Virus record (IMG/VR): IMGVR_UViG_3300045988_140747
Length of the DNA stretch: 64,000 nucleotides
Origin: a virus
Direction: 5' to 3' (one strand)
Part shown: one piece after another, positions 3,933-26,467 of the stretch
How positions within the stretch are numbered: the first letter of the stretch is position 1
Layout of the letters: the number at the start of each line of letters is the position of its first letter
Notes under the pieces: generated by a model
What the model was told of the DNA's origin: nothing
The model's input: only the letters and a program-made list of their open reading frames with translations
Databases searched by the model: none
Position numbers and translations under genes: made by a program

Positions 3933-4100
3933 ATGCCTACGCAGAGAGAATTTTCTGAAGCTTTCAGGTGGATGTTCGGAAGCACTTGGAGAGGAGCTGT
4001 TGAGACGTACAAGGAAATGAAACGGAAGGATCCACAGTATATCGAAACAGTCGTGGCCGTCTACCGGAAAAATAGCCGAGATGCGTTTTATAACGACTGA
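3933..4100 (+). CDS. Small hypothetical protein (55 aa) between two tRNAs
   Basis: ATG follows GGAGGAAATGA. It translates to MPTQREFSEAFRWMFG...YRKNSRDAFYND and is below the ORF-track cutoff. Confidence 0.35.
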   Translation: MPTQREFSEAFRWMFGSTWRGAVETYKEMKRKDPQYIETVVAVYRKNSRDAFYND

Positions 4101-4110
4101 TTATCAATAC

Positions 4111-4187
4111 GGGCTAGTAGCTCAGTCGGTCAGAGCCGGCAGCTCATAACTGCTTGGTCGCGGGTTCAAGTCCTGCCTGGCCCACCA
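4111..4187 (+). tRNA. tRNA-Met (or Ile2) anticodon CAT, CCA encoded
   Basis: Acceptor gggctag/ctggccc, D arm gctc-agtcggtca-gagc, anticodon loop ctCATaa, T arm gcggg-ttcaagt-cctgc. Not initiator-like: there is no GGG/CCC anticodon stem. Confidence 0.85.
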
Positions 4188-4224
4188 TTTTTTTGAATAC
4201 TACCCCAAAAAGGAGAGATGGATA

Positions 4225-4470
4225 ATGAAAAATTCGAGCGTCAAGGAAATCGTTGAATGGGTTATTGCGAAGGGGAAAGAGAAGGCTTCGTCTCGTGTCG
4301 CGGTTATCCACGAAAGCGAGATTATCAAAGAGTTCGGTGTGGAACCTGGATGGCTTCAGAGCCATGGTCCCGAAATCTATCATGAGTGCGATCGGCACAC
4401 AGAAGTTTCGGATTCTCTGATCTACACCGGAAATGACAGGGACTATTGGTCTATTCAGCTCACTTTTTGA
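4225..4470 (+). CDS. Hypothetical protein (81 aa)
   Basis: ORF with AGGAGAGA RBS. Confidence 0.45.
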   Translation: MKNSSVKEIVEWVIAKGKEKASSRVAVIHESEIIKEFGVEPGWLQSHGPEIYHECDRHTEVSDSLIYTGNDRDYWSIQLTF

Positions 4471-4507
4471 GCAAATAATAAGTCAAACGTGAAGGAAGGT
4501 TTTCATT

Positions 4508-4879
4508 ATGTTTTATTCGTTCTGCTTCTTGAACGGCAAGATCGGCGTTACTCTTGATCGCTACACCACCATCTCACCGAAGTTCCGCTCTTGCATTACC
4601 GGAATGATCGTTTCCGAAGATGATACTGAGGCGCTTGGCGATATGATCGGTGAAGAGGGCATTCATCTCCTTGTTGAGAACGGCTTTCTGATCGAAGAAG
4701 GCGAATGGAAAAAGACTCCTGACACCAGATCGTGGCAGGAGCTTTGTGAGTATGGCGAGGTTATCAAAGCGGTAAGGAAATTCAGGGAAGATCACGATTC
4801 CACCCTGAGAGAAGCTCGTGATGCCATTGAGAACTACAAGGCGTTTCTGAAGAACAAGTACGGCAGGAAGGGAAAGTAA
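4508..4879 (+). CDS. Hypothetical protein (123 aa)
   Basis: The C-terminal VIKAVRKFREDHDSTLREARDAIENY is faintly reminiscent of the ribosomal L7/L12 C-terminal domain (weak). Confidence 0.45.
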   Translation: MFYSFCFLNGKIGVTLDRYTTISPKFRSCITGMIVSEDDTEALGDMIGEEGIHLLVENGFLIEEGEWKKTPDTRSWQELCEYGEVIKAVRKFREDHDSTLREARDAIENYKAFLKNKYGRKGK

Positions 4880-6746: not shown

Positions 6747-6944
6747 ATGAAAAAAGCAAACGGCAGGTATATGGATGTAGTGTGCGACCGTTGTGGGCGC
6801 GATATCCGAGTGGATGACACAAGCAGGGCGCTACTACACGGATGGGGATGGCGAAAAGACACTGGAGACTTATGCCCGGGGTGTTATAGCGACTACAGAA
6901 AAATGATCTCTGAATTCAAATCCGAGAAGCGCAAAATCCGATAA
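6747..6944 (+). CDS. Small zinc-ribbon protein (65 aa)
   Basis: AGGAGG RBS; CDRCGR ... CPGC. Confidence 0.45.
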   Translation: MKKANGRYMDVVCDRCGRDIRVDDTSRALLHGWGWRKDTGDLCPGCYSDYRKMISEFKSEKRKIR

Positions 6945-6970
6945 ATGTTAAGATTTAGGAGGAACTAAGC

Positions 6971-7198
6971 ATGGAAGAATGCAGATTAAAACCATGTCCC
7001 TTTTGTGGTGGCGAGGTCACCATCGCTGAAGGCGGCGATGATTTAACTAAGTGGATGTTTGTCACAAGAGGAAACAAAGAAAACGCTTGCAAGTGCCGCG
7101 TATTTATGGAAAGTAAACCGTACTATTCTGATTGCGAAGAAAATGATAAACAAAGTATCAAGCGGAAGCTTATCAATGAGTGGAATAAGAGGATTTGA
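6971..7198 (+). CDS. Lar-family restriction-alleviation-like zinc-ribbon protein
   Basis: N-terminal LKPCPFCGG signature plus a second Cys pair (CKC); 75 aa. Confidence 0.6.
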   Translation: MEECRLKPCPFCGGEVTIAEGGDDLTKWMFVTRGNKENACKCRVFMESKPYYSDCEENDKQSIKRKLINEWNKRI

Positions 7199-7227
7199 TA
7201 AAAGCTGAGATTTAAGGGAGATACATT

Positions 7228-7425
7228 ATGAAAAAGTTCGTTGTTCTTTTTGAAGGTTGGAATGATAAGCACGACCGTGAATGTATGCGCTATGTTGTTG
7301 ATGCAGATGATGGCTTTGAAAGTATTTTGAGTGTTGAAGAACGGGCGGAAAAGATGGCTCGAAGCAAACATCCTAATCTGAAAAATTTTAAGACGCTTTA
7401 CATCAAAGAACTGCTTAACAGATAA
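7228..7425 (+). CDS. Hypothetical protein (65 aa)
   Basis: ORF with GGGAGA RBS. Confidence 0.4.
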   Translation: MKKFVVLFEGWNDKHDRECMRYVVDADDGFESILSVEERAEKMARSKHPNLKNFKTLYIKELLNR

Positions 7426-7450
7426 AAACTAAGTTTTAATTAGAGTTGTG

Positions 7451-7630
7451 ATGGAAGAACATGAACTGAAACCATGCCCGTTTTGCGCATCGGAGTATCC
7501 TCATGTCATGCTAAACGATAGAGGAGCGAAGGCTGGAATGTGGAGATACTTTGTAGAATGCCTTAACTGCGAAAGCAAAACTGGCATCTATAAAACAAAG
7601 GAAGGCGCAATGCAGGCATGGGAGCTGTGA
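7451..7630 (+). CDS. Lar-family restriction-alleviation-like zinc-ribbon protein (second paralog)
   Basis: ELKPCPFCAS ... CLNC; 59 aa. Confidence 0.6.
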   Translation: MEEHELKPCPFCASEYPHVMLNDRGAKAGMWRYFVECLNCESKTGIYKTKEGAMQAWEL

Positions 7631-7665
7631 GCATATAAAAAATAGGTTCTATGGAGGTTTGTCTC

Positions 7666-7983
7666 ATGGAGAAAATTAAATTGGTTGATGCAATTTCCAT
7701 TTCTGATGGATTCAAGAAGGCTGGACTGGAGAAAAAATCTGAGGCAAAGAGGCTTATGGATTCAAAAGATATCTATAAGCAACGGAAGGGGATAGTCAAG
7801 GACTGTGGAGCTGATATGATCATTGGCCTTGCTGAAGACCTCGCTACATTTCGAGGAATTGATATTGTTGCACTCCTCACCGAATATGAGTCGATAAAGA
7901 CATATACAGATTGTGAAGAATACAGAAAGCAGGGTGCCATTGAGGTTCTCGAGAGGATGATCGACATGCTCTCTTCAAATTAA
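7666..7983 (+). CDS. Hypothetical protein (105 aa)
   Basis: ATG lies 7 nt after GGAGG and is in frame with track ORF 7651-7983. Confidence 0.45.
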   Translation: MEKIKLVDAISISDGFKKAGLEKKSEAKRLMDSKDIYKQRKGIVKDCGADMIIGLAEDLATFRGIDIVALLTEYESIKTYTDCEEYRKQGAIEVLERMIDMLSSN

Positions 7984-8006
7984 ATCTGTAATCGGAGGTT
8001 CAATTT

Positions 8007-8306
8007 ATGCCATATTTTGTATGTGAGGAATGCAAAGCTGGCCATTGCGCACGAAGGTCTCCCGGACCGAATATCGTAGTGGATAGAATGTGCGATTTTT
8101 TCATTGGATGGTGCGATATCGAAAAATACAAACCGCCGGAATGTACGGAGATTGTAGTCAAGGATTCAAAAGGCAAAATGCATCTTGCTTTTTATCAGCC
8201 TGGTTGGGATGTTGGCTACGCTCATAAGGATCCTGTAGTTATGGACAGCAATACGGGAGAAAAAATCGAGGATCCGGCAAAATGGCTCAAAGGAATGCAG
8301 CTATAG
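8007..8306 (+). CDS. Hypothetical Cys-containing protein (99 aa)
   Basis: CEECKAGHC at the N-terminus; GGAGG RBS. Confidence 0.45.
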   Translation: MPYFVCEECKAGHCARRSPGPNIVVDRMCDFFIGWCDIEKYKPPECTEIVVKDSKGKMHLAFYQPGWDVGYAHKDPVVMDSNTGEKIEDPAKWLKGMQL

Positions 8307-8317
8307 GAGGAATAAAG

Positions 8318-8836
8318 ATGAACGAAGCAAAGATTTTCAAATTTTCCGGGTACGCGGTCGATTCGATTGATCCGTACTCAAAAGATCAGGTTAAGGATAG
8401 CCTTTACGACTGGGCTGACGATCAGTCTTTCCAGTTCCTGCAGCATGTACATGTCGAGGAGGCTGTGTTGCAAGATGATGATCTGGATGATCTGAGCGTC
8501 AAGAACTGCGACTTGTCGCACTGCGAGAAACATTTTCAAAAGCAAGCAAGCGCAGCTGAGTATGACCGGCCCATTCCTAAGCCGGGCGAGCACTGGATGC
8601 ACTTCAAGGCAGGAAAGATGGTCGAGATCGTTGCGGTCAGCCGATGCAGCGAAAGCCCCGATTCTTTCAGCGTGATCTATCGAGATCCAAACGGCATCGT
8701 GTGGGACCGCCCTCTTGATATGTTTATGAGTGAAGTGGATCGCGAGAAATATCCGAATGCTCTCACGAAATACCGTTTCGAGAAAGTTGTTGCAAGCTAT
8801 ACGGCGTATTCTGATACCGTTGAACACTACGAATAA
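8318..8836 (+). CDS. DUF1653-domain protein
   Basis: C-terminal HFKAGKMVEIVAVSRCSESPDSFSVIYRDPNGIVWDRPLDMFMSEV matches the DUF1653 pattern. Confidence 0.55.
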   Translation: MNEAKIFKFSGYAVDSIDPYSKDQVKDSLYDWADDQSFQFLQHVHVEEAVLQDDDLDDLSVKNCDLSHCEKHFQKQASAAEYDRPIPKPGEHWMHFKAGKMVEIVAVSRCSESPDSFSVIYRDPNGIVWDRPLDMFMSEVDREKYPNALTKYRFEKVVASYTAYSDTVEHYE

Positions 8837-8846
8837 GGAGGATCGC

Positions 8847-9119
8847 ATGAAAACCATTTTTTACCCGGCTATCTTTCACCCGGAAACAACAGGCTATTCC
8901 GTTTCCGTCCCTGATATTGAAGGCTGCTTCACTCAGGGAGAGAACATGGAAGATGCCATGTCTATGGCAAAAGAGGCTGTTAGCCTTATGCTCGAAGAGG
9001 CGAGCATATTTCCAAAACCGTCACTCGCCGCTACGATTCGGCTCCACCGTGGAGACTTCATTTCCATGATCCCATTTGAGCCAAAGGATGCTAAAGCTAA
9101 AGGAGATTCTCTGCGATGA
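8847..9119 (+). CDS. HicB-like (UPF0150) antitoxin-fold protein, no adjacent HicA
   Basis: MKTIFYPAIFHPETTGYSVSVPDIEGCFTQGENMEDAMSMAKEAVSLMLE is a typical HicB N-terminal domain. AGGAGG RBS. Confidence 0.6.
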   Translation: MKTIFYPAIFHPETTGYSVSVPDIEGCFTQGENMEDAMSMAKEAVSLMLEEASIFPKPSLAATIRLHRGDFISMIPFEPKDAKAKGDSLR

Positions 9120-9415
9120 ATGAAAAAATTGTCGGCCTTTTCAAGTGCCGTAACTGTGGGTCAATCTTTAATGAAAAAGTGGAAGTGACGCAGTCTGTAA
9201 GTTGGGCAATCAAAGACATGTCCAAGGAAGTTGAATATACCACGACCGCGGCATTCCACGGAACTTCTCTCCCGGGGCGCTTTATCATTCACCGGTGCAA
9301 AAAAGGATGGTTCTGCATTTGCGACCTTGTTGGATGGAAGATTGGAGAGGAGGCGCAGGACGGTTGTGAATTTGGATGGAATATTGGAGAGGAGACGCAG
9401 GACGGTGGTGAATGA
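9116..9415 (+). CDS. Hypothetical zinc-ribbon protein with duplicated C-terminal 14-aa unit
   Basis: CRNCGS...HRC. The C-terminus GWKIGEEAQDGCEF/GWNIGEETQDGGE is encoded by the 42-bp tandem repeat. Confidence 0.45.
   Translation: MNEKIVGLFKCRNCGSIFNEKVEVTQSVSWAIKDMSKEVEYTTTAAFHGTSLPGRFIIHRCKKGWFCICDLVGWKIGEEAQDGCEFGWNIGEETQDGGE
9329..9412 (+). repeat. Tandem direct repeat, 2 x 42 bp
   Basis: gttggatggaagattggagaggaggcgcaggacggttgtgaa / tttggatggaatattggagaggagacgcaggacggtggtgaa, with about 36/42 identical positions. Confidence 0.9.
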
Positions 9416-9758
9416 GGTTAGGCCTGTAGATGCCAATGAGCTGCTGAAGCAGTCTGTCTACTGTAAAGGCGAGGACGGGACTATGTTTTATGCTGTACCC
9501 GCTAGTTCTATTATCAAAGCTTCAACACTGACACCGAAATACATATGGAACACACCAGACAAGAAGCCAACCGAGGCGGATGTTGATCGAAGCGGTTACG
9601 TTTTGGCAATCCACAAGAACGATACCCATATTGAGAGGTGGCTCGCATACATAGTTGCGGAGCACCCGGAAAAATTTTATTGCTGGTATCCGTTGCCGGA
9701 GCCCAAACTGGAGGTTTTCGATCATGAGCAAAATGAAAAAGCTGATTCTTGCAGATGA
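9405..9758 (+). CDS. DUF551-like protein (start uncertain)
   Basis: The frame is open from 9231. Candidate starts are GTG 9405/9408 inside the repeat, or ATG 9483. C-terminal YIWNTPDKKP...VLAIHKND...FYCWYPLPEP. Confidence 0.4.
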   Translation: MVNEVRPVDANELLKQSVYCKGEDGTMFYAVPASSIIKASTLTPKYIWNTPDKKPTEADVDRSGYVLAIHKNDTHIERWLAYIVAEHPEKFYCWYPLPEPKLEVFDHEQNEKADSCR

Positions 9759-10149
9759 CCTGTACGACAAGGTCTCAAGCATGGGTTTGCAGAATGGCTC
9801 TGCTCTTGGTCATCACAGCGGCACCGCTGATGTCATTGCGGAGATGATTTGGCGTGCCCCTGCTGTTGACCCTGCAAGCTGCCTGAACTGGCACACCGGA
9901 ATGCCGCCCGAGCATGATTCTCAATCAGCAAAGCTGAAAGGAACAGAAAAGTGGCATCCATGGATGTTTGAAAAAATATCCGACAAGGTTCTTGTGACCA
10001 TTGAAGATGCAGAAGGCAATCGATGCACCGATGTGTCGCAGACGTTTGACGGGAAATGGAAGGGGTACTACCAGATGGATGCTTTGAAACTCAAAATCGT
10101 TGCATGGACCGAATTTCCATCACCTGCAAAGGAGGCCGACAATGACTGA
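9724..10149 (+). CDS. DUF551-like protein
   Basis: WHTGMPPE...KVLVTIED...IVAWTEFPSP; the ATG overlaps the upstream gene end. Confidence 0.45.
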   Translation: MSKMKKLILADDLYDKVSSMGLQNGSALGHHSGTADVIAEMIWRAPAVDPASCLNWHTGMPPEHDSQSAKLKGTEKWHPWMFEKISDKVLVTIEDAEGNRCTDVSQTFDGKWKGYYQMDALKLKIVAWTEFPSPAKEADND

Positions 10150-10894: not shown

Positions 10895-10970
10895 GCAGCT
10901 GTAGTTCAATTGGCAGAGCATCGGATTTCCAATCCGAGTGTTGCGGGTTCGATCCCCGTCAGCTGCTCCA
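10895..10970 (+). tRNA. tRNA-Gly (anticodon TCC), CCA encoded
   Basis: Acceptor gcagctg/cagctgc, anticodon stem tcgga/tccga with loop ttTCCaa, T arm gcggg-ttcgatc-cccgt. Confidence 0.85.
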
Positions 10971-11624: not shown

Positions 11625-11714
11625 GCAGTCGTACTCAAGTCTGGTTTAAGAGGGCTGTTTTGAAAACAGCTAGGTGGGTAACACGCGCGGGTTCGAATCC
11701 TGCCGGCTGCGCCA
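11625..11714 (+). tRNA. tRNA-Ser (anticodon TGA), type II, CCA encoded
   Basis: Acceptor gcagtcg/cggctgc, anticodon stem gctgt/acagc with loop ttTGAaa, long variable arm taggtgggtaacacgc, T arm gcggg-ttcgaat-cctgc. Confidence 0.8.
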
Positions 11715-12444: not shown

Positions 12445-12534
12445 CGAGGATTCGCCAAGATGGTAATGCAGCGGAATTTGACTCCGCCAGTGCTGAATAA
12501 GCGATCGCAGGTTCGAGCCCTGCATCCTCGGCCA
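12445..12534 (+). tRNA. Atypical tRNA, anticodon TTG (Gln) with a 19-nt variable region
   Basis: Acceptor cgaggat/atcctcg, Gln-like D arm tcgccaagatggtaatgca, anticodon stem gcgga/tccgc with loop atTTGac, extra segment cagtgctgaataagcgatc, T arm gcagg-ttcgagc-cctgc, G73 and CCA. Confidence 0.5.
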
Positions 12535-12557: not shown

Positions 12558-13187
12558 ATGGAAAGCAAAGAACAGCTGGTGATTTTCGGTGCCGGCCAGC
12601 AGGGGCGCGTATGTAAGCGCCTTGCCATTGAAAACGGTTATGATGTGGCAGCATTCATTGATGACTTTGCCGCAGGATTAGTAGAGGATGTCCCCGTTTA
12701 TCAAACCATCTATGATATCCCGGACTTCCGAAAATACAAATATTTCGTTGCCATTGGGGATGTCAAGGCAAGACGGAAGTTCGTTGACCAGATCTACTCT
12801 CAGAAACTTGAATCTGTCAATTTGATCGACAAAGCCGCCTATATCGAAGATGGAGCGCAGCTCGGTACAGGAAACTACATCTGCAAGCTTGCGATCATCT
12901 ACGCATCTGCAAAGATCGGAAGCCACAACATTATCAACTGTAAGGCAGTTCTCGCCACGGATACGGTGGTAGGCACCAACAATAACATCTCAATGGGATG
13001 CAACCTATGCGGAAGCGTCCGTGTCGGGAACAACTGCTACATAGGATGTCAGGCGTCCATTGTGAGCGAACGAACTATTGGAAACGGCTCTACTGTCGCA
13101 GCTGGCGCTGTTGTCCTGAAGAATGTCCCTGAGAATTCTTTCGTTGCTGGTGTACCTGCCATTCCGAAGGAGAGGAAAAGACGATGA
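12558..13187 (+). CDS. NeuD/PglD-family sugar O/N-acetyltransferase (hexapeptide-repeat), copy 1
   Basis: N-terminal LVIFGAGQQGR Rossmann-like domain followed by left-handed beta-helix repeats (IGSHNIINCKAVLATDTVVGTNNNISMG...). Confidence 0.7.
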   Translation: MESKEQLVIFGAGQQGRVCKRLAIENGYDVAAFIDDFAAGLVEDVPVYQTIYDIPDFRKYKYFVAIGDVKARRKFVDQIYSQKLESVNLIDKAAYIEDGAQLGTGNYICKLAIIYASAKIGSHNIINCKAVLATDTVVGTNNNISMGCNLCGSVRVGNNCYIGCQASIVSERTIGNGSTVAAGAVVLKNVPENSFVAGVPAIPKERKRR

Positions 13188-13846
13188 AAGTTCTTGTTAT
13201 CGCACCTCACCCTGATGACGAGATTCTCGGTGTTGGCGGAACGATAGCAAAAAGGGCTGCTGTCGGCGATGAAGTTACCGTGTGCATCTGTACAAAGGGC
13301 GTACACCCTATGTTCGATCAAAAGATTATTAAAGCTGGACGTGATGAAGCCAGAAAGGCTCACACATACCTTGGTGTCTCAGAAACCATATTTCTGGATC
13401 TTCCTGCTGCAGAGCTTGATAGTCTGCCTATGACTGATATCGTGGGAAGGCTCGAGAATGTGGTTTGCGAAACACGTCCAGATGAGATTTTCATTCCTCA
13501 TCATGGTGACATCCACAATGACCATAAGGCTATCTCTGCTGCCGCGATGGTTGCTTTGAGGCCGAAACGGTTCAAGAAGCCTGTTCGCATTCTCAGCTAT
13601 GAGGTTCCGTCTGAGACAGGATGGGATACTCCTACTCCAGAAAATGCATTTAGCCCGAATGTATATGAGGATATCACCGACACAATCGGAAAGAAGCTCG
13701 ACGCTGTTCTTATATACAGATCGCAAGCTGAACAGTGGCCGGGCGCTCGTTCCGCGGGCGCTGTTGAAGCTCTTGCAAAATATCGGGGATCTACCGTCTG
13801 CATCCCTTACGCCGAGGCATTTCAGCTTGTAAGGCAGACACTGTGA
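13184..13846 (+). CDS. PIG-L/LmbE-family de-N-acetylase
   Basis: VLVIAPHPDDEILGVGGTI and the HGDIHNDH metal-site motifs. Confidence 0.75.
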   Translation: MKVLVIAPHPDDEILGVGGTIAKRAAVGDEVTVCICTKGVHPMFDQKIIKAGRDEARKAHTYLGVSETIFLDLPAAELDSLPMTDIVGRLENVVCETRPDEIFIPHHGDIHNDHKAISAAAMVALRPKRFKKPVRILSYEVPSETGWDTPTPENAFSPNVYEDITDTIGKKLDAVLIYRSQAEQWPGARSAGAVEALAKYRGSTVCIPYAEAFQLVRQTL

Positions 13847-13873
13847 CCAACATCTAAAGAAGAGGGTTCGTCA

Positions 13874-14527
13874 ATGGAAAAACGAATTGAAGTTTGCAAG
13901 ATGAGAGCTGGAGATATCAAAACCGGCTTCGGGAATCCCAGAAAGATCAGCAACAAAAAAATGGATGAGCTCGAGCAGAGCATGAGCACCTTCGGAGATT
14001 TCGGGATTTTCCTCATCGACGAAAAGAACAACGTCATCGGCGGAAACCAGCGGTTGAAAGTTGTCAAGAAGCTTTATGGCGAAGATGCCATGATTGATTG
14101 CAAACGGCTCATCGGATATTCTCAATCCGAGCTCAAGGCGATCAACATCAAGGACAACACACACTCTGGTGAATGGGACCTTGACTTGTTGGCTGACTGG
14201 ACTTCTGAACTCGTCATGGACTTCAGCGTTGAGGCCGAGGAGAAGAAGCAGATCGAAGAGCGCGAGATCCCGGAGATGGAGCTTATCCACTACGAAAAGT
14301 ACGATTATGTCATGATCGTATGCAACAACGAGCTGGATTACAACAATCTGGTGAGAGCACTTGGCATCGAAGGCAAGAAAGTTCGGATTTCCAAACGCAA
14401 GATCAACGCGCGTGCGGTCTGGTATCACAAGATGAAGGCGAAGGTCATTCCTTACGATGAACTTCCTGAAGAACTTCTTGATGATTCTGACATCAAGGCA
14501 AGGGATGGCGGTGGCGAAGATGAGTAA
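13874..14527 (+). CDS. ParB/Srx-like N-terminal-domain protein
   Basis: GFGNPRKIS (box I-like) and VIGGNQRLKV (GxxR box II-like). Embedded between sugar-modifying enzyme genes. Confidence 0.5.
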   Translation: MEKRIEVCKMRAGDIKTGFGNPRKISNKKMDELEQSMSTFGDFGIFLIDEKNNVIGGNQRLKVVKKLYGEDAMIDCKRLIGYSQSELKAINIKDNTHSGEWDLDLLADWTSELVMDFSVEAEEKKQIEEREIPEMELIHYEKYDYVMIVCNNELDYNNLVRALGIEGKKVRISKRKINARAVWYHKMKAKVIPYDELPEELLDDSDIKARDGGGEDE

Positions 14528-15143
14528 CAATACTCTCGTTATCCTTGGTGCCGGCCAGCAGGGAAGAAACTGCCATAGACTGGCTCCCATCAACGGTTAT
14601 CAAACGGTTGCCTTCGTCGATGATTTCATCACTGACCCAGTGGAAGACATCCGGGTGTATAGCAAGATCGAAGATATTCCGGATTTCATGGATCATAAGT
14701 ACATCGTTGCTGTTGGGGATCTTGCGGTCAGAAAAAAGTTCATTGAGCAGATCAATCTGCTTGGCCTTGAGTGCGCAAACCTGATTGATCCCACCGCTGA
14801 TATCGAACCCGGAGCCAAGATTGGAACTGGCAACTACATCTACAAGTTCGCCAGCGTGTATGCTTCGGCCACAATCGGAGACCACAACATTATCAATTGC
14901 AAAGCTGTACTTGCTACCGACAGCGTTATTGGCAACAACTGCAATATCTGCATGGGAAGCAACATCTGTGGCGCGGTTCATGTAGGAGACAATAGCTATA
15001 TTGGGTACAACGCAACGGTCGTCAGCGGGAACAACGTGGGGGCGAACGCCACAGTGGAGGCTGGATCTGTGGTTATGGAGGATGTGCCGGACTGGCTCCG
15101 CGTTTCTGGTATTCCGGCTCGAGACGCCGAAGAACTGTGGTAA
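14520..15143 (+). CDS. NeuD/PglD-family acetyltransferase, copy 2 (paralog of 12558-13187)
   Basis: LVILGAGQQGR plus hexapeptide repeats. Roughly half the residues are identical to copy 1 by eye. Confidence 0.7.
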   Translation: MSNNTLVILGAGQQGRNCHRLAPINGYQTVAFVDDFITDPVEDIRVYSKIEDIPDFMDHKYIVAVGDLAVRKKFIEQINLLGLECANLIDPTADIEPGAKIGTGNYIYKFASVYASATIGDHNIINCKAVLATDSVIGNNCNICMGSNICGAVHVGDNSYIGYNATVVSGNNVGANATVEAGSVVMEDVPDWLRVSGIPARDAEELW

Positions 15144-15158
15144 ACGTAGAGGTGTAAT

Positions 15159-15875
15159 ATGGAAAAGCCAGATATTTTCGGAATCTACATTCCGAGCTAT
15201 AAGAGATCTGATACGATTACCACTCATAAGCTTCTCGAATACTACAAGGTTGTTATTCGCCAGAGCGAATATGAAGACTACCTCAAGACCATCCCTGCAG
15301 AAAACATCATTGCCGTTCAGGACGATCTTATCGATAGCGTTCCGAAGGTGTGGAACTGGATCATCGACAATGCAGAGGAGGACTACTTCTGCATTATCGG
15401 TGATGATGTTCCAAGGTTCTACTACCGGCTTGAGAAGAGCGAGGCCATCACAGATCCTGAGATTATCACTTCTGAGATAGAGCGAATCGGCCAGCTTATG
15501 ATCGATCTCAATATCGGATGGGGATGTGATGATGCCACCAACGTGCCTTGGGGATACGATGCTGAGTTCACGTTCAAGGGGACTACCGGCGGAATCAACT
15601 GGATTAACAGGAAGAAGCTCAAGGGAAGGTTCAATGCGGAAATCGGATACTGCTGCGATACCGATGTCGTTATGCAGGAACTTCTGGTAAACCGGATTAT
15701 TCTCAAACCCAAGTATTTGTGTCCCGGCGGTGGAGCTGACAAAAACAAAGGCGGCAACTCAAAGAAGAGCCGAGAGAGTATGATTGCCAGCTTCGAACTT
15801 ATGAAAACGAAGTGGGGCAAGTATTTCGACTACGACCTGAAGACCAACAAGATCTATGTGAGGGTTCCGCGATGA
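15159..15875 (+). CDS. Putative GT-A-like glycosyltransferase
   Basis: N-terminal beta-strand motif GIYIPSYKRSD and a DxD-like CIIGDDV about 80 aa later. No closer family recognised. Confidence 0.35.
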   Translation: MEKPDIFGIYIPSYKRSDTITTHKLLEYYKVVIRQSEYEDYLKTIPAENIIAVQDDLIDSVPKVWNWIIDNAEEDYFCIIGDDVPRFYYRLEKSEAITDPEIITSEIERIGQLMIDLNIGWGCDDATNVPWGYDAEFTFKGTTGGINWINRKKLKGRFNAEIGYCCDTDVVMQELLVNRIILKPKYLCPGGGADKNKGGNSKKSRESMIASFELMKTKWGKYFDYDLKTNKIYVRVPR

Positions 15876-16555
15876 CCGATGTAAGAGTGTTCTCAGGCCA
15901 TCAGCCAAACTTCCTTCCATACATGGGCGTGTTCTACAAGATGTACCGTTCCAACGTGTTTGTCTTGGATGACGATGTGCAGTATTCTAGGGATGGACTT
16001 CACAACGCCAACTTTATCAAAGTGAATGGGTCTAAGCACAGGATTACCGTGCCGGTCAAATACAACTTTGGAGATCCGATCAACAAGGTTGAGATATGCA
16101 ACGACATGGATTGGGCTGGCAAGATGCTCAAGACTATGAAGTGCGCTTATGCAAAGGCTCCGCATTTTGAAGAAGGATATGGGCTCTTGGAAAGGCATTT
16201 TCAAAACATGCCAACCCGCTTGTCGGACTTGAACATTGGCCTCATCCGCGAAATCGCAGATAGATTCGGGATGACGTGCAAAATTGTCGTTGCCAGCGAA
16301 TCTGTTCCTACGGATCTCAAGAAGAACGAAAGAAACCTCTACCAATGCATCACCCTCGGGGGAAGTGAGTACCTGTCAGGAGAGGGAGGAAGGGTATACA
16401 ACGACGAAGAGCTGTTTGCTGGGCACGGGATCGACGTGAAGTACTCCGATTATCATCCACTCCATTACAGGCAAGTCGGTAGGGAGTTCATCGAGAACTT
16501 ATCCGTTATTGACTACATTTTTAATGTTGGATTTGCGATTCCTGAAGAATGGTGA
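15872..16555 (+). CDS. WbqC-family protein
   Basis: HQPNFLPYMGVFYKM at the N-terminus and LSVIDYIFNVG at the C-terminus match the WbqC-like pattern. ATGA overlap with the upstream gene. Confidence 0.6.
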   Translation: MTDVRVFSGHQPNFLPYMGVFYKMYRSNVFVLDDDVQYSRDGLHNANFIKVNGSKHRITVPVKYNFGDPINKVEICNDMDWAGKMLKTMKCAYAKAPHFEEGYGLLERHFQNMPTRLSDLNIGLIREIADRFGMTCKIVVASESVPTDLKKNERNLYQCITLGGSEYLSGEGGRVYNDEELFAGHGIDVKYSDYHPLHYRQVGREFIENLSVIDYIFNVGFAIPEEW

Positions 16556-16584
16556 AATAATTCTCGGTGATACGTCAAAAATAC

Positions 16585-16612
16585 TTTACAAATGGAATGG
16601 TTGTGTTACGAT
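16585..16612 (+). promoter_or_regulatory. Sigma-70-type promoter, copy B of the conserved phage promoter
   Basis: TTTACA, 16-nt spacer, (tgt)TACGAT, then TTATATAAAAA. Confidence 0.55.
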
Positions 16613-16646
16613 ATAGTTATATAAAAACCACATCAGGAGGTTAAAT

Positions 16647-17807
16647 ATGGCTTATCCGTACACAGAGAATGGCTACAACATGTTCGACATGCTCAGCCTG
16701 ATTCAGAAATCCATCCGCCGTTCCGACTACAATCATGCAAGCTTCGCAGCAAAACAACTCAAGGGGCGATACCGCAGTACAATGTGGAATCGCCTTTTTG
16801 TCACCGCATCGGAAGACTGTTTTGGCGTATTATCAAAAGAACTCGTCGAGCTGAGGAAATGTGATGAAGTGCATCCCAGCGACCAGAACCTCAGTGATGC
16901 ACTCGCTCTGATGTGCAGAGCAAAGAAAAGCCGGGATGCCTGCTACTTTGCCTGCAATTTCGTCCTTGCAAACAGAAAGCCGCGCAACTTCGAGTTTTCG
17001 GAATCGGAGATGTACGGTTTTCATTTGCAGTTGAATAGAATCCATGATCGTATTGCCGGGAAGATCAATCCTGATGGATGCGATCAGCTCTCTATCGAAG
17101 AGAACGGATTCAAAGAAGCTGACATTGACTACTGCGATCTGTTCTGTGAACTCAGCGAGGGAGAAGCCGCAGTGGCATACAATGGCCTTGCTCTCCAGAA
17201 GGCTATGAAACACCGCGACATGGATATGATCGGCTATCACACCAACTTCTTCCGGGAAAATTGCCGAGAGAAGTTTTGGGAGACACTGCTCGATTACACC
17301 CTGACCAATGCGCTGGATCTCTATAGTGAGATTGACGCCCTGCGGATCTGCGATGAAGTTGTCAACAAGAGGAGAGCACCTCTCGATAAGGACAACATCT
17401 TCGTGGCGAAGGCGGTCATGCTGCTGTGCTACTACGAAGATGACCGGTTCGACTCCGTATTATCAAACAAGATTGTCAAGTTCGATGAGCTTATCGACTG
17501 GTCGCAGTGGGACATTCCTTCCATTGAGCGGGCAAGGCTCGTGAATGGTGAAATCCCTGAGTGGGTATATGACTGCCACACCCTGAAGGGAAAGAAAGCG
17601 GGGAAAACCGACTGGGATATGACCGTTAGTGAGCAGGCAGCTCTTACACCTCTCCAGCCGGCATACTTCGATGAAGCAAGCTGGCTGTACACCTACGAGC
17701 AGGACGTGGAGATGGGAGTTCTCGATGAGGTGGGGATGAAGCCCATCCGGGAATTCGCAAAAACGCATCCAGTGAATCCCGTGGAGGTAATCCCCTATGA
17801 GGAGTGA
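16647..17807 (+). CDS. Stand-alone MgsA/RarA C-terminal-like helical-domain protein (386 aa)
   Basis: MLSLIQKSIRRSD..A...A.QL...WNRLFVTASEDCFG ... ALMCRAKKSRDACY parallels the MgsA_C pattern (SAfiKSiRGSD...RRl.i.AsEDiG...KSNa.Y). No AAA+ module is present. Confidence 0.45.
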   Translation: MAYPYTENGYNMFDMLSLIQKSIRRSDYNHASFAAKQLKGRYRSTMWNRLFVTASEDCFGVLSKELVELRKCDEVHPSDQNLSDALALMCRAKKSRDACYFACNFVLANRKPRNFEFSESEMYGFHLQLNRIHDRIAGKINPDGCDQLSIEENGFKEADIDYCDLFCELSEGEAAVAYNGLALQKAMKHRDMDMIGYHTNFFRENCREKFWETLLDYTLTNALDLYSEIDALRICDEVVNKRRAPLDKDNIFVAKAVMLLCYYEDDRFDSVLSNKIVKFDELIDWSQWDIPSIERARLVNGEIPEWVYDCHTLKGKKAGKTDWDMTVSEQAALTPLQPAYFDEASWLYTYEQDVEMGVLDEVGMKPIREFAKTHPVNPVEVIPYEE

Positions 17808-18048
17808 GCCTGAAAGAAAGTCCGATAAGGTCCGGAGGTTGGTGGCAGAGGGAAGATACAAGGAAGCCCTGAGAATTGCCAAGGATTTCCATTTTGGCAT
17901 ATCCAAGGAAGACTCCGACACCATGAAGCGGGGATATGAATGTATGGTATGGCCGGACTTTTACAGGCAGATAGGGAAGATGCCCTCTGAAATCTCACAA
18001 AAAGCCATAGAAACCGTGCAACGGCTGTATGGAATAAAATCAATCTAA
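17797..18048 (+). CDS. Hypothetical protein (83 aa)
   Basis: Overlaps the upstream stop and is followed by a terminator. Confidence 0.4.
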   Translation: MRSEPERKSDKVRRLVAEGRYKEALRIAKDFHFGISKEDSDTMKRGYECMVWPDFYRQIGKMPSEISQKAIETVQRLYGIKSI

Positions 18049-18070
18049 GAAGATAAAAAACGCTCATAAA

Positions 18071-18107
18071 CAGCCTCTACGATCAATGCGTAGGGGCTGT
18101 AATTTTT
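18071..18107 (+). terminator. Rho-independent terminator
   Basis: 11-bp stem cagcctctacg/cgtaggggctg, 7-nt loop, then TAATTTTT. Confidence 0.7.
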
Positions 18108-18115
18108 GAAAAAGG

Positions 18116-18727
18116 TTGGTGAAACTAGTGGACGAAAACAAGGAACGGAATGACGCTCCCGAAACGGCGCTTAAAAGCGCGAAGAAAACGCGAAGAAAAC
18201 TTTCCCCTCAACTGAAGGAAAATCAATACACCAAGGGGTCCGAAAAGGCAAGAGAGAATGGTCGGAAGGGCGGGATCAAATCCGGCGAGTCCAAACGGAA
18301 CAAGAAGGATGCCAGAGAGTCTATCCGGTATATGCTTCAGTTGTCCGCCAAGAAGGGCTGGGAAGCAAACCTCAAGGAGTTTGGCGTTGCTACGGAAGAG
18401 CTGACCAACATGAACGCCCTTAGCGCCAGGCTGTTTTCAATGGCTTTGAGCGGAAACCTTGATGCCTATCTGACCCTCATGAAGATGGGAGGATATGATC
18501 CCGAAGAAATCCGTAGAGAGCGCGAGAGCATTGCATCCGATGCCCGCCGGGATAAGGAAGTCAATGCTAAGGTGGAAGCTCTCGGTAATGGGCCGGATGG
18601 ATCCAGCGCCGCGCTCAACATGAATGACGAGGAAGGCCACAGCGATGTCGTAATCTACATGCCGCAGGTAGAAAAGTTCGAGGATCTTGAGGAAAAAGAC
18701 CAAGAGGGCGGCAAGACTGAGGAATAA
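18116..18727 (+). CDS. Putative terminase small subunit
   Basis: Lies immediately upstream of the large terminase. Basic N-terminus and helical core; 203 aa. Assigned by position and composition only. Confidence 0.5.
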   Translation: MVKLVDENKERNDAPETALKSAKKTRRKLSPQLKENQYTKGSEKARENGRKGGIKSGESKRNKKDARESIRYMLQLSAKKGWEANLKEFGVATEELTNMNALSARLFSMALSGNLDAYLTLMKMGGYDPEEIRRERESIASDARRDKEVNAKVEALGNGPDGSSAALNMNDEEGHSDVVIYMPQVEKFEDLEEKDQEGGKTEE

Positions 18728-18760: not shown

Positions 18761-20163
18761 ATGCCACAGATCCTGAAGCCGCAGGAAGGACCTCAGACAC
18801 GGTTCATGTCTACCCCCGCGAGCATTTGTATCTATGGCGGCTAGGAGCAGCCGGCGGAGGGAAAAGCTTTGGATTGCTCATGTCTGCCCTTCGGTACAAG
18901 AACGTGCCCGGGTTTGGCTGCACCATATTCCGAAAGAACTTCAACCAGATATTTGCACAGGGCGGTCTGTGGGATGAATCCATGCAGATCTACCAAGACG
19001 TCAAGGGAGCTTGTCCCAAGTTCGCTCGAGGGCAATGGTTGTTCTGCAATGACAAAGGTGAGGTTTTATCAAAGGTCACGTTTGCTCATATTGAGAAGGA
19101 TGAGGACGTCCATAAATGGCAAGGCTCTCAGATCTGCGAATTGGGATTTGACGAGCTAACTCATTTTACCGAGAAAACGTTCTTCTATATGCTATCCCGT
19201 AACCGATCTGCCTGTGGTGTTGAGCCATTTGTCAGGGCTACATGCAACCCTGATGCGAATTCATGGGTGGCAAAGTTCATTGAGTGGTGGATCGATCAGG
19301 ATACTGGATACCCAATCCCTGAACGGAGTGGGAAGATTCGATGGTTTATCCGCCGGGATGAAGTGCTCTACTGGGCTAATACCCGGCAAGAGCTCTGGAA
19401 AAGATTCAATCTCACTACAGAAGAGGAGAAAAGTGAGCCAAGGTCTGTCACGTTCATAATGTCTAAGTTGAGCGACAACAAGGAACTTATGAAGGTGAAC
19501 CCGGGCTACCTTGCAAACCTAAAGGCGCTGTCTCAGATCGAGAGAGAGCGCCTTCTTTATGGAAACTGGAAGATCAAGGCCGCTGCTGGTCTCTACTTCA
19601 AGAGATCACAGCTTGGAGAGATTCTCAATAGTGTCCCTGCGGATGTCATCCAGTGGGTAAGATGCTGGGACTTGGCTGCTACGGAAAAGGACGACAAGGG
19701 AGACCCGGCATATACTGCTGGCGTCCTTATGGGAAAGCGGAAGAATGGACGATATGTCATTGCCAACGTTGTCAACAAGCAGATGTCCGCATCTGATGTC
19801 CGAAAGACCATCAAGCTCACGGCACAGTCTGATAGAGCTGCCTATAAGCGAGTCCGAGTTCGATTGCCACAGGATCCCGGACAGGCCGGTAAGGAACAGG
19901 CGGAGTCCTACATAAAGTTCTTGGCCGGCTTTGATGTTACGACTGTGGCAGAAAGCGGAACCAAAGAGGCAAGAGCGGAGCCAATGGCTGCACAATGGCA
20001 GGCTGGAAACTTCGACATTGTATACGGCGAGTGGAATGAAGAGTACCTGCTTCAGCTTGAAAACTTCCCAGATGGAAAGTTCAAGGATATGGTCGATGCT
20101 TCCGCAAATGCTTTTGCAGAGATCGAATCCAGATGCGCATTCAACCTCAGCAACCTGATTTGA
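18761..20163 (+). CDS. Terminase large subunit, apparently split by a frameshift at ~18842
   Basis: RBS plus ATG 18761 gives MPQILKPQEGPQTRFMSTPASICIYGG and then TAG. The -1 frame continues (L)GAAGGGKSFGLL (Walker A), LGFDE (Walker B) and nuclease-domain acidic residues through to 20163. Confidence 0.8.
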
Positions 20164-20189
20164 TTACCATACCGGAAGGAGATATAAGC

Positions 20190-23100
20190 GTGGATAAGAT
20201 GACACAAGAGGATCGCATCAAGCACTATGCGCATCTGATTCAGCGTCAGACTGGCAAGGCTGTGCGACCGTACCGTGCTGACGGATACGTCAACATGGTT
20301 AACCGGTATGGCACATCGAAAGATTCGTCCGAGCAGTACAACTTCGTACCGGATGCGCCGGTTGCTGACGATGTGCTTGAAATGCACTATGAAAACAACG
20401 GCCTGTTTTCCAAAATCATCGATATGCCGGCAGAGGAAGCCATCAAGCACGGCTTTACCATCGAAGACGTAGAGGACGGAAAGCTGGCTGACTTCTACAG
20501 CGAAGCTCTCGACGAACTCAACTGGGAAGAGAACGCCATGACCGCCGTTAAGTGGGCAAGACTGTTCGGCGGCTCCATTGCCATTATGCTTGTGAACGAT
20601 GGTCGTGGGCTCGAGGAACCTCTCGATTGGAAGAACATTCAATCCATTGACGATATCCGAGTGTACGACAGATCGCTCATTAGCCCTGACTACAGTAGCG
20701 TGTTCAACTACGATCCGCAGGATCCATTCCGAGTTCGCGGCAGTCGGCTTGGTATGCCCGAATACTATGATGTCTATAGCAAGTATGGATCATTCCGAGT
20801 ACACGACAGCAGATGCCTTGTTTTCCAAAACGGCGTCCTGCCTGAAAATGCAACTAACTCCATCTACCAGTTTTGGGGAATCCCGGAGTACATCAGGCTG
20901 AACAAGGCCATCCGGGATGCGGACATTGCACACCGCAGCGCACCCAAGTTGCTGGAACGGTCTGTGCAGCCCATCTATAAGATGAAGGATCTCGCGGCTG
21001 AGTTGGCTACAGAACAGGGCGAAGACCGCATTCTCAAACGTCTGCAGGTTATCGACACTGCACGAGGAATCCTCAACAGCCTTGTCATCGATGCCGATGG
21101 CGAAGACTATGACTTCAAGACGTTCCAGTACAACGGTATCACTGACGTTATCAGTGCATCCTGCAATATGCTCGCTGCCCTGTCCAATATTCCACAGATC
21201 ATTCTGTTTGGGCAGACCATCAGCGGAATGAGCAGCACTGATGACACCAGCATGGAGAACTACTACAACTACGTTGAGCGCATTCAGAAAAGGATGCTGC
21301 GGAGTAATCTCCGATATCTACTGTCTGTTGTTTTTCAAGCCGGCCTTGCAACCGGAGAGGTTGATGAAGTCCCAAAGCTGAAGGTTCAGTTCAATCCTCT
21401 GTGGTCTGTCAGCGATTCCGACCAAGCAACTCTGGATCAGCAGAAGGCCCAGACCGAGCAGATCAAGGCGCAGACTGCCCAGATCTATGTCGGTATGGAA
21501 GCCATTGATCCCAGCGAGGTTCGTTCCAAGCTTGCAGATAGCGATGACTTTGATGTCGAGAATATGCTTGATGAGTATACTGAAGAGGAACTCGAAGCTG
21601 GAATGCCAAGCAATGATGAGAGCCAAGAGCAAACGCCTGATGATGGACAGCCTGCTACTCCTGATTCTCAACCTACTGGAAATGATGAAAAAGCCGGACC
21701 TGGTCAGCTCCTGAACGAAAAGACTCTCTCTGCTGTTGGAAACAATGCAAAAGATCCTGCCACCATGGAGACTAAGGTTAGCTCCGATCCTCATGAAAAC
21801 AAGGAAGGCACTGAAGGTGATGCCCCTGCATCCGCCCCTGCTGCGACGAAAAAGCCTTCCGACATGGACCCTGAAGAAAAGGCCAAAGCTGCACAATCGC
21901 GCCAAAACAAGGCAAAAGACCGGGAGGACTCACTTCGTACCGATGACAACAATTCTCACTCCGAAGATCAAAAAGGCTCGGTGGGCGTTATTGTGGTCAA
22001 TGGGGGCAGAGTCCTGAATGGTACTCGGCACAACGATTTTGGCTACGGCCTTGTCTGTGGCCCCGGCGGTCACATTGAAGAAGGTGAAACTCCGGAACAG
22101 GCTGCATTCCGAGAGACCAAAGAAGAATTCGGTATTACGCCCAAAAGCCTTATGTGCCTTGGACAAGGGCCTAAAGAAAAAGATACCGGCCTGAAGCCGT
22201 ACCTGTTCCTGTGCACCGAATACTACGGCACTCCGAACTGCGAAGATCTCGAGATGACCGGCGCCAAGTTCAGTACCATTGAGGAATTGAACGAAAAGGC
22301 CGAATCCTTGTTCGGCCCGTTCGCAGACGGCCTGAACATCCTGATGGACTGCCTTGAAACCGGCATCTTCTATACAGACCCAGCGGAAGGCGTAACTGGC
22401 GAGAAACTGAATTCTCATCTGGAAAAGGCTATGAATGCCGATGGAGGTCAAGGATCTGGCAATTTTGGACACGAAGGAAGGCCAGGAAAAGTAGGAGGAA
22501 GCGCCGAGTCGCACAACTTTGGAGGGCTCAAAAACAGCGAGCTTTCATCTAAGATGAATGGCGTGTTCGATGATGCAAAGATAGGAACTCGCTTTTCCGT
22601 AAAGATGAACGGCGTTGCCGGAAAAGATGATTATGAAATCTATAAAGTTTCAGATGGATTCTACGTTCGGAGCAAAAAAGGCGGAAACGATATTGTCAAA
22701 TCAGTTGACAAGCTCGTCGAGAATTGCGGTGTATACGTCACAAATCTGACCTCTGACAAGGTCATGTATAAGGAAGCCAACATTGAAGTTGGTGAACCCG
22801 AAACAGAAGAAGCACAAAGTTTTACTAGAGCATACGAATCTTGCAGAAAGGAAAGAGAGCGACTTGCATCTGGGAATTATAAAATCACTGAAGTTGATGA
22901 TGCTACCGCAAAAAAGTATGCTGACACTTTGAACAAAGCAAGCAAGGCAAAAATCGCAAAACTTGCTATTGATGACCCACAGTTCAAGGCTGTTGTTGAT
23001 AACATTTCTGCGTATACACAGGGAGAATATGTATATCAGCGAAAAGCGACTGAAAAATTCATCAGCAACGGATATGACCCATCTAACGATGCAATCCTCG

Positions 23101-26430: not shown

Positions 26431-26467
26431 ACGTTTGTAAAAAACATCATGTTCTAGGAGGGATAAA

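Follow-up and report, generated by a model that had tools for sequence, protein, structure and literature searches.

A ParB-like protein, a TAGT-clade glycosyltransferase and an MgsA_C-like protein form the constant core of a phage sugar-modification module that may act on DNA

The 64,000-nt viral sequence IMGVR_UViG_3300045988_140747 from IMG/VR (hereafter the window, meaning the whole stretch of DNA that was analyzed) comes from a phage infecting gut Firmicutes. Seven open reading frames (ORFs), all on the + strand, occupy positions 12558-17807 between thyX and the terminase genes (Table 1). They encode, in this order, a NeuD/PglD-type acetyltransferase (AT1), a PIG-L de-N-acetylase, a ParB-like protein, a second acetyltransferase (AT2), a GT-A fold glycosyltransferase, a WbqC-family protein and an MgsA_C-like protein of 386 amino acids (p386). 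Analysis of related loci revealed that the ParB-like protein, the TAGT-clade transferase and the MgsA_C-like protein are a constant core, around which the sugar-tailoring genes vary. We propose, with moderate confidence, that this module glycosylates the phage's own DNA late in infection, after replication and before packaging, using a sugar derived from N-acetylglucosamine (GlcNAc) that would be deacetylated, would receive an amide-linked group and would then be N-acetylated.

Related loci were collected from IMG/VR viral contigs, public assemblies and GTDB bacterial genomes. A viral locus was counted when at least 5 kb upstream and at least 3.5 kb downstream of the transferase gene were available, which left 55 loci. 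Genes for the ParB-like protein, PIG-L and p386 were present in all 55. WbqC was found in 53 loci and a TerL gene followed the module in 53; the gene of a small basic protein, p83, was present in 46, a DegT-type aminotransferase in 22 and a PglD-type acetyltransferase in 16. Among 30 prophage loci in bacterial genomes the ParB-like protein accompanied the transferase in 29, the 30th having no upstream sequence, and p386 was present in all 30. PIG-L was absent from the most divergent prophage versions and p83 from the minimal one (locus L124). The genomes concerned are metagenome-assembled or isolate genomes of Lachnospiraceae, Oscillospiraceae, Acutalibacteraceae, Ruminococcus, Lawsonibacter, Faecalibacterium, Roseburia and Coprococcus, together with single Peptostreptococcaceae, Treponema and Bacteroidales genomes and several assigned to Clostridia or Eubacteriales only; all 30 loci are in lineages of gut or rumen anaerobes. 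A first-pass annotation of the window, made from its letters without database searches, had suggested a survey of whether the ParB-like gene always occurs with this enzyme set, and the counts above bear such an association out. Homologues standing in host O-antigen loci without the ParB-like gene, a possibility raised in the same annotation, were not seen in the loci surveyed: wherever the transferase family occurred, it was in a phage or prophage and accompanied by ParB and TerL, and it was never in a host glycan locus. One ParB variant alone accounts for 649 blocks indexed in a public assembly collection, and among the accessory units carried by prophages of the human gut the module is one of the more common. 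No description of it was found in the literature searched.

Several arrangements of the variable genes could be distinguished. The simplest of those containing PIG-L reads ParB, PIG-L, WbqC, transferase, and another has an acetyltransferase gene inserted between ParB and PIG-L. In a third, ParB is followed by an aminotransferase (sometimes fused to an acetyltransferase), a UDP-GlcNAc 4,6-dehydratase-type enzyme (Polysacc_synt_2, E 1.6e-96), PIG-L, WbqC and the transferase, which has the logic of a bacillosamine-like pathway. In a fourth, a Gfo/Idh/MocA oxidoreductase and an aminotransferase::acetyltransferase fusion replace PIG-L, with the logic of a 2,3-diamino sugar. A further version consists of ParB, an ATP-grasp enzyme, the transferase and then a decarboxylase related to N-citrylornithine decarboxylase. 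The minimal arrangement, in Lachnospiraceae prophages (L124-L126), comprises ParB, the transferase, a UDP-glucose dehydrogenase-like gene and a single-copy MgsA_C-like gene. On several different phage backbones the module has a late-regulator-type gene ahead of it and the terminase immediately behind it, and the backbones that carry it differ in portal type. The three core families are unrelated to each other and are kept together across phages of Firmicutes and of Actinobacteria (the latter described below) and across these differing backbones, which argues that they function jointly.

The transferase was described in the first-pass annotation as GT-A-like. The fold assignment holds, and it can be refined. 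An AlphaFold2 model of the protein has a GT-A fold (mean predicted local distance difference test score, pLDDT, 88). When the model was compared with predicted viral structures (BFVD), the best matches were TAGT-domain phage proteins with template modelling (TM) scores of 0.75-0.81, among them B2ZYD7 of phiRSL1 (TM 0.77); the T4-like beta-glucosyl-HMC-alpha-glucosyltransferase of Klebsiella phage PKO111 gave a TM of 0.72. The sequence matches PHROG 842, annotated as beta-glucosyl-HMC-alpha-glucosyltransferase, with an E value of 1.2e-11, and most of its close homologues have a precomputed match to Pfam TAGT (PF20691). An acidic metal-binding motif of the DxD type, D82-D83, is invariant across 22 homologues. 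Comparison of the model with the PDB returned generic GT-A folds alone, at TM of about 0.5 (WrtF, AvpGT, RmlT and TarP), direct sequence searches of the transferase or of WbqC against solved structures gave nothing significant, and among 50,697 isolate phage records tblastn found nothing that matched the transferase. By predicted fold, the enzyme appears to fall in the TAGT / beta-glucosyl-HMC-alpha-glucosyltransferase clade of DNA glycosyltransferases from phages.

The ParB-like protein (217 amino acids) has no Pfam match, including to ParB_N (PF02195). It matches PHROG 620 (ParB-like, E 5.7e-21) over residues 1-125 and the N-terminal part of PHROG 498 (DNA methyltransferase) with E 5.2e-20, and it contains NPR and GGNQR motifs. 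The protein appears to consist of an N-terminal ParB-type domain and a conserved C-terminal part of about 90 residues, and seems too short to hold a helix-turn-helix domain as well. In isolate phages the relatives of its ParB domain detected by tblastn were of two kinds only, the N-termini of DNA adenine methyltransferases, from Streptococcus, Blautia, Faecalimonas and other phages, and the ParB of the Microbacterium cluster EC module. With the latter it aligns at 75% coverage, the C-terminal part included.

The third core protein, p386, had been called a stand-alone MgsA/RarA C-terminal-like protein. This description is supported by a weak match: a profile of 23 p386 homologues hits the MgsA_C structures 2qw6 and 2r9g with E values of 0.004-0.01 over about 57 residues only. 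The protein has no Pfam match, including to PF12002, and no AAA+ ATPase module. What can be added is that it is internally duplicated, residues ~1-165 and 183-340 both matching the same region of a single-copy homologue; the single-copy form of the domain is found in Microbacterium phage Gina and in L124. Its cysteines C90, C99 and C103 were considered as a sign of an iron-sulfur or oxygen-independent hydroxylase. They are not kept in the Microbacterium homologue and this candidate was rejected.

We infer a DNA target from the clade to which the transferase is assigned, from a ParB domain of the methyltransferase type in the midst of sugar genes, from the presence of the MgsA_C-like protein, from the placement of the module at the head of the late operon, immediately ahead of the terminase, and from two published precedents. 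ParB-like activators make phage thymine dioxygenases act on double-stranded DNA, and genes for glycosyltransferases, ParB and terminase are overrepresented around these dioxygenases (PMC13229309); phage glycosyltransferases also place GlcNAc on 5-hydroxymethylcytosine (5hmC) in DNA (PMC8256090). By analogy with the ParB-dependent dioxygenases and with ParB-methyltransferase fusions, the ParB-like protein would hold or activate the transferase on double-stranded DNA, and p386 could be an oligomeric adaptor. The variable genes would set which sugar is installed. In the window the order of steps may follow the logic of mycothiol and bacillithiol synthesis. The transferase would add GlcNAc from UDP-GlcNAc, and PIG-L would strip the N-acetyl group to leave a free amine. 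WbqC would then join a carboxylate, probably of an amino acid, to the freed amine using ATP, and one or both of the PglD-type acetyltransferases would cap a remaining amine. Variant modules would give 4-amino or 2,3-diamino sugars, uronic acids, or an amide-linked amine formed by decarboxylation. Several of these predicted end products would bear an amine, free or maskable, as is recurrently the case in hypermodified phage DNA.

The tailoring enzymes could be assigned with family models. Both acetyltransferases contain PglD_N and Hexapep domains and pass the NCBIfam model TIGR03570 (NeuD/PglB/VioB; cutoff 160.8 bits) with 182 bits for AT1 and 168.5 bits for AT2. They are paralogues, as the first-pass annotation had proposed, with 57% identity (BLASTP E 2e-82); AT2 is missing in relatives L005 and L006. 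The PIG-L protein scores 90.7 bits against PF02585 (cutoff 28.2, E 1.4e-25) and its translation carries the metal-binding motifs PHPDDE and HHGDIHNDH. Its best named relative is BshB1 (TIGR04001, E 5.5e-22, below the cutoff of that model). The WbqC protein scores 196.5 bits against PF08889 (cutoff 21.3, E 7e-58). The family names given from the letters alone were essentially right.

For WbqC itself no literature relevant to function was found. When its AlphaFold2 model (pLDDT 96) was compared with the PDB, BshC (4wbd; E 4.8e-4, TM 0.43) alone fell below an E value of 0.001; class I tRNA synthetases and cytidylyltransferases came next. The slot of WbqC is taken by an ATP-grasp enzyme (PF15632, PylC-like_N) in viral loci L056 and L060, and a homologous ATP-grasp gene occupies it in seven bacterial-genome loci (L117, L118, L120, L121, L122, L127 and L128). 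WbqC homologues of bacteria (P0402, P0415, P0425, P0473 and P0364) are repeatedly fused to an N-terminal GNAT domain and once to a cytidylyltransferase of the CMP-sugar type. The fold match to BshC, the ATP-grasp enzyme in the same slot and the GNAT fusions together lead us to predict for WbqC the activity of an ATP-dependent carboxylate-amine (aminoacyl) ligase with an amino sugar as substrate. Its identity as a dioxygenase or cupin was ruled out by the predicted fold. In the Lawsonibacter prophage L120 an ATP-grasp ligase (6938-8023) and a pyridoxal-phosphate-dependent decarboxylase (8677-9912) stand in for WbqC and PIG-L. The closest match of the decarboxylase is N-citrylornithine decarboxylase (E 2.7e-35), and the set suggests that an amide-linked ornithine on the sugar is turned into a putrescine-like amine.

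The same enzyme set could make a soluble small molecule, either an aminoacyl-glucosamine conjugate resembling bacillithiol or mycothiol or a modified nucleotide-sugar, that manipulates host metabolism or defence. A GlcNAc transferase paired with PIG-L, with deacetylation after transfer and acylation of the amine thereafter, is known from mycothiol, bacillithiol, glycosylphosphatidylinositol anchors, aminoglycosides and teicoplanin. Mycothiol and bacillithiol synthesis (MshA/B/C/D, BshA/B/C) has the same order of GlcNAc transfer, PIG-L deacetylation, ATP-dependent ligation and N-acetylation, which the module mirrors with its transferase, PIG-L, BshC-like ligase and N-acetyltransferase. No macromolecular acceptor has been identified for the module, and the ParB fold is common to sulfiredoxin and some kinases. 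However, the transferase of the window is a GT-A enzyme of the phage TAGT clade whereas those of mycothiol and bacillithiol synthesis are GT-B enzymes of family GT4, and the acetyltransferases are of the LbH type rather than the GNAT type. Nothing points to a thiol, and the acceptor is probably a macromolecule. The ParB domain groups with the N-termini of DNA methyltransferases, and the minimal versions do without PIG-L and the ligase but always keep ParB and the MgsA_C-like protein. A soluble product therefore seems highly improbable to us.

Several observations weigh against a DNA target or against parts of the proposed pathway. The transferase scores 25.4 bits with PF20691, below the gathering score of 27.5, and covers profile positions 3-100 of 205. 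Its family is not exclusively DNA-directed, as GREB1, an animal TAGT-family member, is reported to glycosylate a protein (PMC7968844). The transferase, ParB and p386 have acidic isoelectric points of 4.9-5.3, which is atypical of DNA-binding proteins. TarP and RmlT, among the PDB fold neighbours of the transferase, are wall-teichoic-acid glycosyltransferases, and the fold match between WbqC and BshC is modest at a TM of 0.43. The census loci were gathered by similarity of the transferase and many come from one metagenome, so that they are not independent samples. Finally, an enzyme that would prepare DNA for glycosylation was not found in the ORFs scanned, as detailed below.

An alternative, for which the neighbours TarP and RmlT speak, is that during infection or lysogeny the module modifies a polymer of the host envelope; wall teichoic acid and polysaccharides of the cell wall or capsule are examples. 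By analogy with the prophage-encoded TarP, this would block superinfection or the sticking of progeny to debris. Pathways for surface glycans typically employ NeuD/PglD, PIG-L, WbqC, DegT, PglF-like and Gfo/Idh/MocA enzymes; WbqC is a large family, with 8,371 cluster representatives in a public library, and its fusion partners are sugar-pathway enzymes. The carriers of the module are temperate prophages. On the other hand, membrane-spanning segments were detected in none of the module proteins, and the module includes no membrane protein, flippase or polyprenyl-phosphate transferase. It lies inside the lytic late operon before the terminase and not at a prophage end, it is also present in strictly lytic Microbacterium phages, and its transferase family has the phage-restricted contexts noted above. 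Modification of the envelope is improbable on this evidence.

In all DNA glycosylations characterised so far the sugar goes onto a hydroxyl put in place beforehand, either by a TET/JBP-type dioxygenase or by a thymidylate-synthase homologue (PMC13326640). A Pfam scan of 56 non-structural ORFs of the window, located outside the structural region at 26-55 kb, detected no TET/JBP dioxygenase (PF12851) and no ThyA-type hydroxymethylase or hydroxylase. Neither a dioxygenase nor a hydroxymethylase was detected in 26 further ORFs, which included the whole left arm of a sister genome and the ORFs without assigned function adjoining the module in prophages, or among 115 representative neighbour ORFs from 80 viral loci (25 of 26 families in one batch). 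The left arm of the sister genome encodes RecT, SSB, RusA, a DnaC-like loader and a dUTPase, and no polymerase. No cognate dioxygenase partner of the 5mYOX type was detected in the ORFs scanned, and no dioxygenase is annotated in the right half of the genome examined in the Microbacterium phages, which are aerobic. Since the gut hosts are anaerobes, an oxygen-dependent dioxygenase could not function in them; this would account for the missing enzyme, though not for its substitute. The first-pass annotation had offered DNA hypermodification as one of three roles, next to virion glycosylation and modification of the host envelope, while pointing out that no hydroxymethylase or base-exchange enzyme was evident. 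That role gains from the transferase clade, from the relatives of the ParB domain and from the thymine dioxygenase precedent (PMC13229309), and loses from the hydroxylase or hydroxymethylase not being found in the window ORFs scanned or in the related loci examined, a caveat that the wider scans have strengthened. The neighbouring thyX and dut genes, which it had taken as a further pointer to DNA modification, lie outside the conserved unit. We considered both as members of the pathway and rejected them: thyX occurs in 3 and dut in 4 of the 55 viral loci, and Faecalibacterium phage FP_oengus, whose thyX is 74% identical to that of the window (83% in DNA), has no module.

If no hydroxyl-installing enzyme accompanies the core, two possibilities follow: the core may glycosylate DNA that carries no hydroxyl, which would be a new chemistry, or its acceptor may be something other than DNA. 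According to the first possibility the core trio would be self-sufficient and, in phages whose hosts are strict anaerobes, would glycosylate a canonical base or a DNA end with no need of oxygen, with the tailoring genes making the sugar cationic or amino-acylated. We consider this rather unlikely, though far from negligible. About 65% of some 25,000 contigs with phage glycosyltransferases have no dioxygenase or thymidylate-synthase neighbour and were left unexplained (Pyle 2023, bioRxiv 10.1101/2023.12.21.572611); the module described here may be a large and coherent part of that set.

The second possibility includes glycosylation of virion proteins, in which capsid, tail or portal proteins would receive a variable amino sugar that changes immune or receptor recognition, ParB and p386 being packaging or late-operon proteins that happen to adjoin the transferase. 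This would be compatible with the missing base-hydroxylating enzyme in the ORFs scanned and with the reported protein glycosylation by GREB1. The module heads the late structural gene block, and the diversity of glycans across relatives resembles the diversification of surface antigens. It is hard, however, to explain by adjacency alone that ParB is interleaved with the sugar genes in two arrangements and that the core trio is kept from Firmicute to Actinobacterial phages. The relatives of the ParB domain at the N-termini of DNA methyltransferases also speak against such a role, as do the nearest structural relatives of the transferase, which are DNA-directed phage enzymes. We regard virion glycosylation as unlikely, and retain DNA glycosylation as the favoured reading.

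The seven genes are tightly packed between thyX and the terminase, as the first-pass annotation had described. The gaps from AT1 to WbqC are -4, +27, -8, +15 and -4 bases, with +91 ahead of p386, and ribosome-binding sites of the GGAGG or GAGG type precede the cluster genes. The promoter copy reported before p386 was found as well, as a promoter-like consensus match. Its motif, TT(T/G)ACA followed by TGTTACGATA, is repeated at 26402-26431 and, with one mismatch, at 2716-2725; if up to one mismatch is allowed, the 10-mer occurs 7 times where 1.9 copies are expected. The unit ends, ahead of the terminase genes, with an eighth conserved gene, p83, and a terminator-like hairpin; the terminase genes are its constant downstream neighbours and stand outside the enzyme set. 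Terminase_6N/6C domains were recorded in related loci.

Table 1. Positions of the module genes, signals and flanking features in the window
Feature	Positions	Strand	Assignment and basis
AT1	12558-13187	+	NeuD/PglD-type hexapeptide N-acetyltransferase; TIGR03570
PIG-L de-N-acetylase	13184-13846	+	PF02585, PHPDDE zinc motif
ParB/Srx-like protein	13874-14527	+	PHROG 620, PHROG 498
AT2	14520-15143	+	ORF opens at 14457, likely start ATG at 14520; TIGR03570
GT-A fold glycosyltransferase	15159-15875	+	PF20691 below cutoff, PHROG 842, AlphaFold2 model
WbqC-family protein	15872-16555	+	ORF opens at 15812, likely start at 15872; PF08889
Promoter-like site	16585-16613	+	TTTACA, 16 nt, TG-extended -10; consensus match; in the 91-bp gap before p386
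p386, MgsA/RarA C-terminal-like	16647-17807	+	Profile against PDB 2qw6 and 2r9g
p83, small basic protein	17797-18048	+	PHROG 18237, E 2e-24
Intrinsic-terminator-like hairpin	18070-18100	+	12-bp stem, 7 GC pairs, T-rich tail
TerS-like	18116-18727	+	Constant downstream neighbour
TerL	18826-20163	+	Constant downstream neighbour
dut	1653-2069		Upstream of the cluster
thyX			Upstream of the cluster
tRNA-Gln	12445-12534		Between thyX and AT1

Some features of the surrounding DNA were recorded in passing. The TerL gene is followed by a single ORF of 2078 amino acids (20133-26369, +). In close relatives this region is split into a ~784-residue portal (Phage_portal_3) plus NUDIX protein and a ~1271-residue protein with an ADP-ribosylating toxin domain (PF03496). 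Inspection of the 2078-residue protein by eye showed a ParB-like 'EGRHRAAAA' stretch and four similar glycine-rich stretches, 'GxGxGNxGHEG(R/V)xGxxGGSA'. Besides tRNA-Gln the window has five tRNA genes, for Pro (3806-3881), Met (4111-4187), Gly (10895-10970), Ser (11625-11714) and Thr (27591-27666); three of the six bracket thyX. Two tandem 42-nt copies, 93% identical, lie at 9330-9413 inside the ORF at 9116-9415 and duplicate a peptide of 14 residues. The early genes include one with a HicB-like antitoxin domain (8730-9119) and one for a DUF1653 protein (8282-8836), both kept in the close relatives L012-L014.

In related loci, L006 (= L024) encodes a 638-residue C5-cytosine DNA methyltransferase (2444-4360) and a Lar-like restriction-alleviation protein (4149-4634) some 4-5 kb upstream of the module. 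Other neighbour ORFs encode a homologue of ribosomal protein S6 (L081, 1404-1745, E 1.5e-26), an RtcB RNA ligase (L038, 1869-3077, E 7e-63) and one FemAB/Acetyltransf_6-type protein (alignment A8). Directly upstream of ParB an ORF of 212-260 amino acids on the opposite strand was observed in L015-L017 (~7170-7952, -) and L008 (6713-7351, -), with no Pfam match in the two copies scanned. A similarly placed ORF, whose 316-residue representative has no Pfam match, is present in 17 viral loci.

The protein families of the module and ParB-containing clusters for phage DNA glycosylation were already known. The module is distinguished by its constant core, by a dioxygenase being absent from the ORFs scanned and by interchangeable sets of amino-sugar tailoring genes. 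Should DNA be the target, the range of phage DNA glycosylation would grow to include temperate phages that infect strict anaerobes and in whose examined regions no DNA polymerase is encoded, and the amino sugar, amino-acylated or made cationic in another way, would be a new chemistry. ParB-like proteins would then be partners of glycosyltransferases as well as of dioxygenases and methyltransferases, and the question would arise what serves as the acceptor when there is no hydroxylase. If the DNA is unhydroxylated, this would be the first DNA glycosylation without a 5-hydroxymethyl or 5-hydroxy handle. Such DNA could resist restriction enzymes and CRISPR nucleases, could bias metagenomic sequencing and could matter for the engineering of gut phages. 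Separately from the question of DNA, the large, uncharacterised WbqC family gains a testable predicted role as an ATP-dependent ligase on amino sugars.

Of the systems already described, the 5mYOX (TET/JBP) clusters (Burke 2021, PMC8256090; Pyle 2023; O'Toole 2026, PMC13229309) share with the window a TAGT-clade GT-A transferase and a short ParB-like protein, which in the window appears to comprise a nucleotide-binding domain and a C-terminal domain and would have no room for a DNA-binding domain. Adjacency to the terminase and accessory sugar enzymes are also common to both, and GlcNAc is a known donor for such transferases. Unlike these clusters, the window showed no 5mYOX dioxygenase, no partner C5-methyltransferase and no thymidylate-synthase homologue in the ORFs scanned, and it adds the constant MgsA_C-like partner and tailoring by a deacetylase, a ligase and acetyltransferases, which has not been reported for 5mYOX clusters. 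A second comparison is with the fusions of ParB to DNA adenine methyltransferases in Streptococcus Javan, Blautia and Faecalimonas phages. Their N-terminal domain is homologous to that of the window protein, with 32-35% identity over ~100-115 residues, and they likewise lie between early genes and the terminase. In the fusions ParB is joined to a methyltransferase, while in the window it is a separate protein that stands with a glycosyltransferase.

A third comparison is with the phages with sugar-hypermodified thymidine, SP-15, RP13, YerA41 and Carin-5 (PMC12686479), of which RP13 and Carin-5 share tailoring genes with the window. In Ralstonia phage RP13 heavily modified bases are reported to have hindered sequencing, and its annotation as thymine-modified derives from conserved biosynthetic genes (PMC12686479); it has a PIG-L and WbqC pair beside its replication genes, an independent occurrence that we count towards a DNA target, and the sugar block of Carin-5 contains a gene like GlcNAc deacetylase. 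These phages are, however, large and lytic, encode a polymerase themselves and follow a pre-replicative 5-hydroxymethyldeoxyuridine (5hmdU) route, and their glycosyltransferases are unrelated to that of the window. RP13 ORF105 and ORF110 were considered as TAGT-like transferases and ruled out, and the ParB/MgsA_C core was not seen in the stretch of RP13 examined.

The closest counterpart in cultured phages is found in Microbacterium cluster EC (Quhwah, Gina), where the same three core families occur in the same order at a genome end adjoining the terminase. The gene order in Gina is a sigma factor, gp88 (ParB), gp89 (glycosyltransferase), gp90 (UDP-glucose dehydrogenase-like) and gp91 (MgsA_C-like). 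Gp88 passes ParB_N with 33.9 bits against a cutoff of 26.3, and by hhalign gp89 matches the transferase family with 90% probability (E 1.7e-6) and gp91 matches p386 with 99.7% probability. No function has been reported for this module (PMC7302621). Identity to the window proteins is only ~25-30%, the MgsA_C-like gene (annotated 'AAA-ATPase') is single-copy, and the tailoring gene encodes a uronic-acid-type dehydrogenase instead of the PIG-L, WbqC and acetyltransferases of the window. The layout is identical to that of the Lachnospiraceae prophages L124-L126, which spans temperate gut prophages and strictly lytic phages. Since the cluster EC phages are cultured and share the core, what the module modifies can be tested in them directly.

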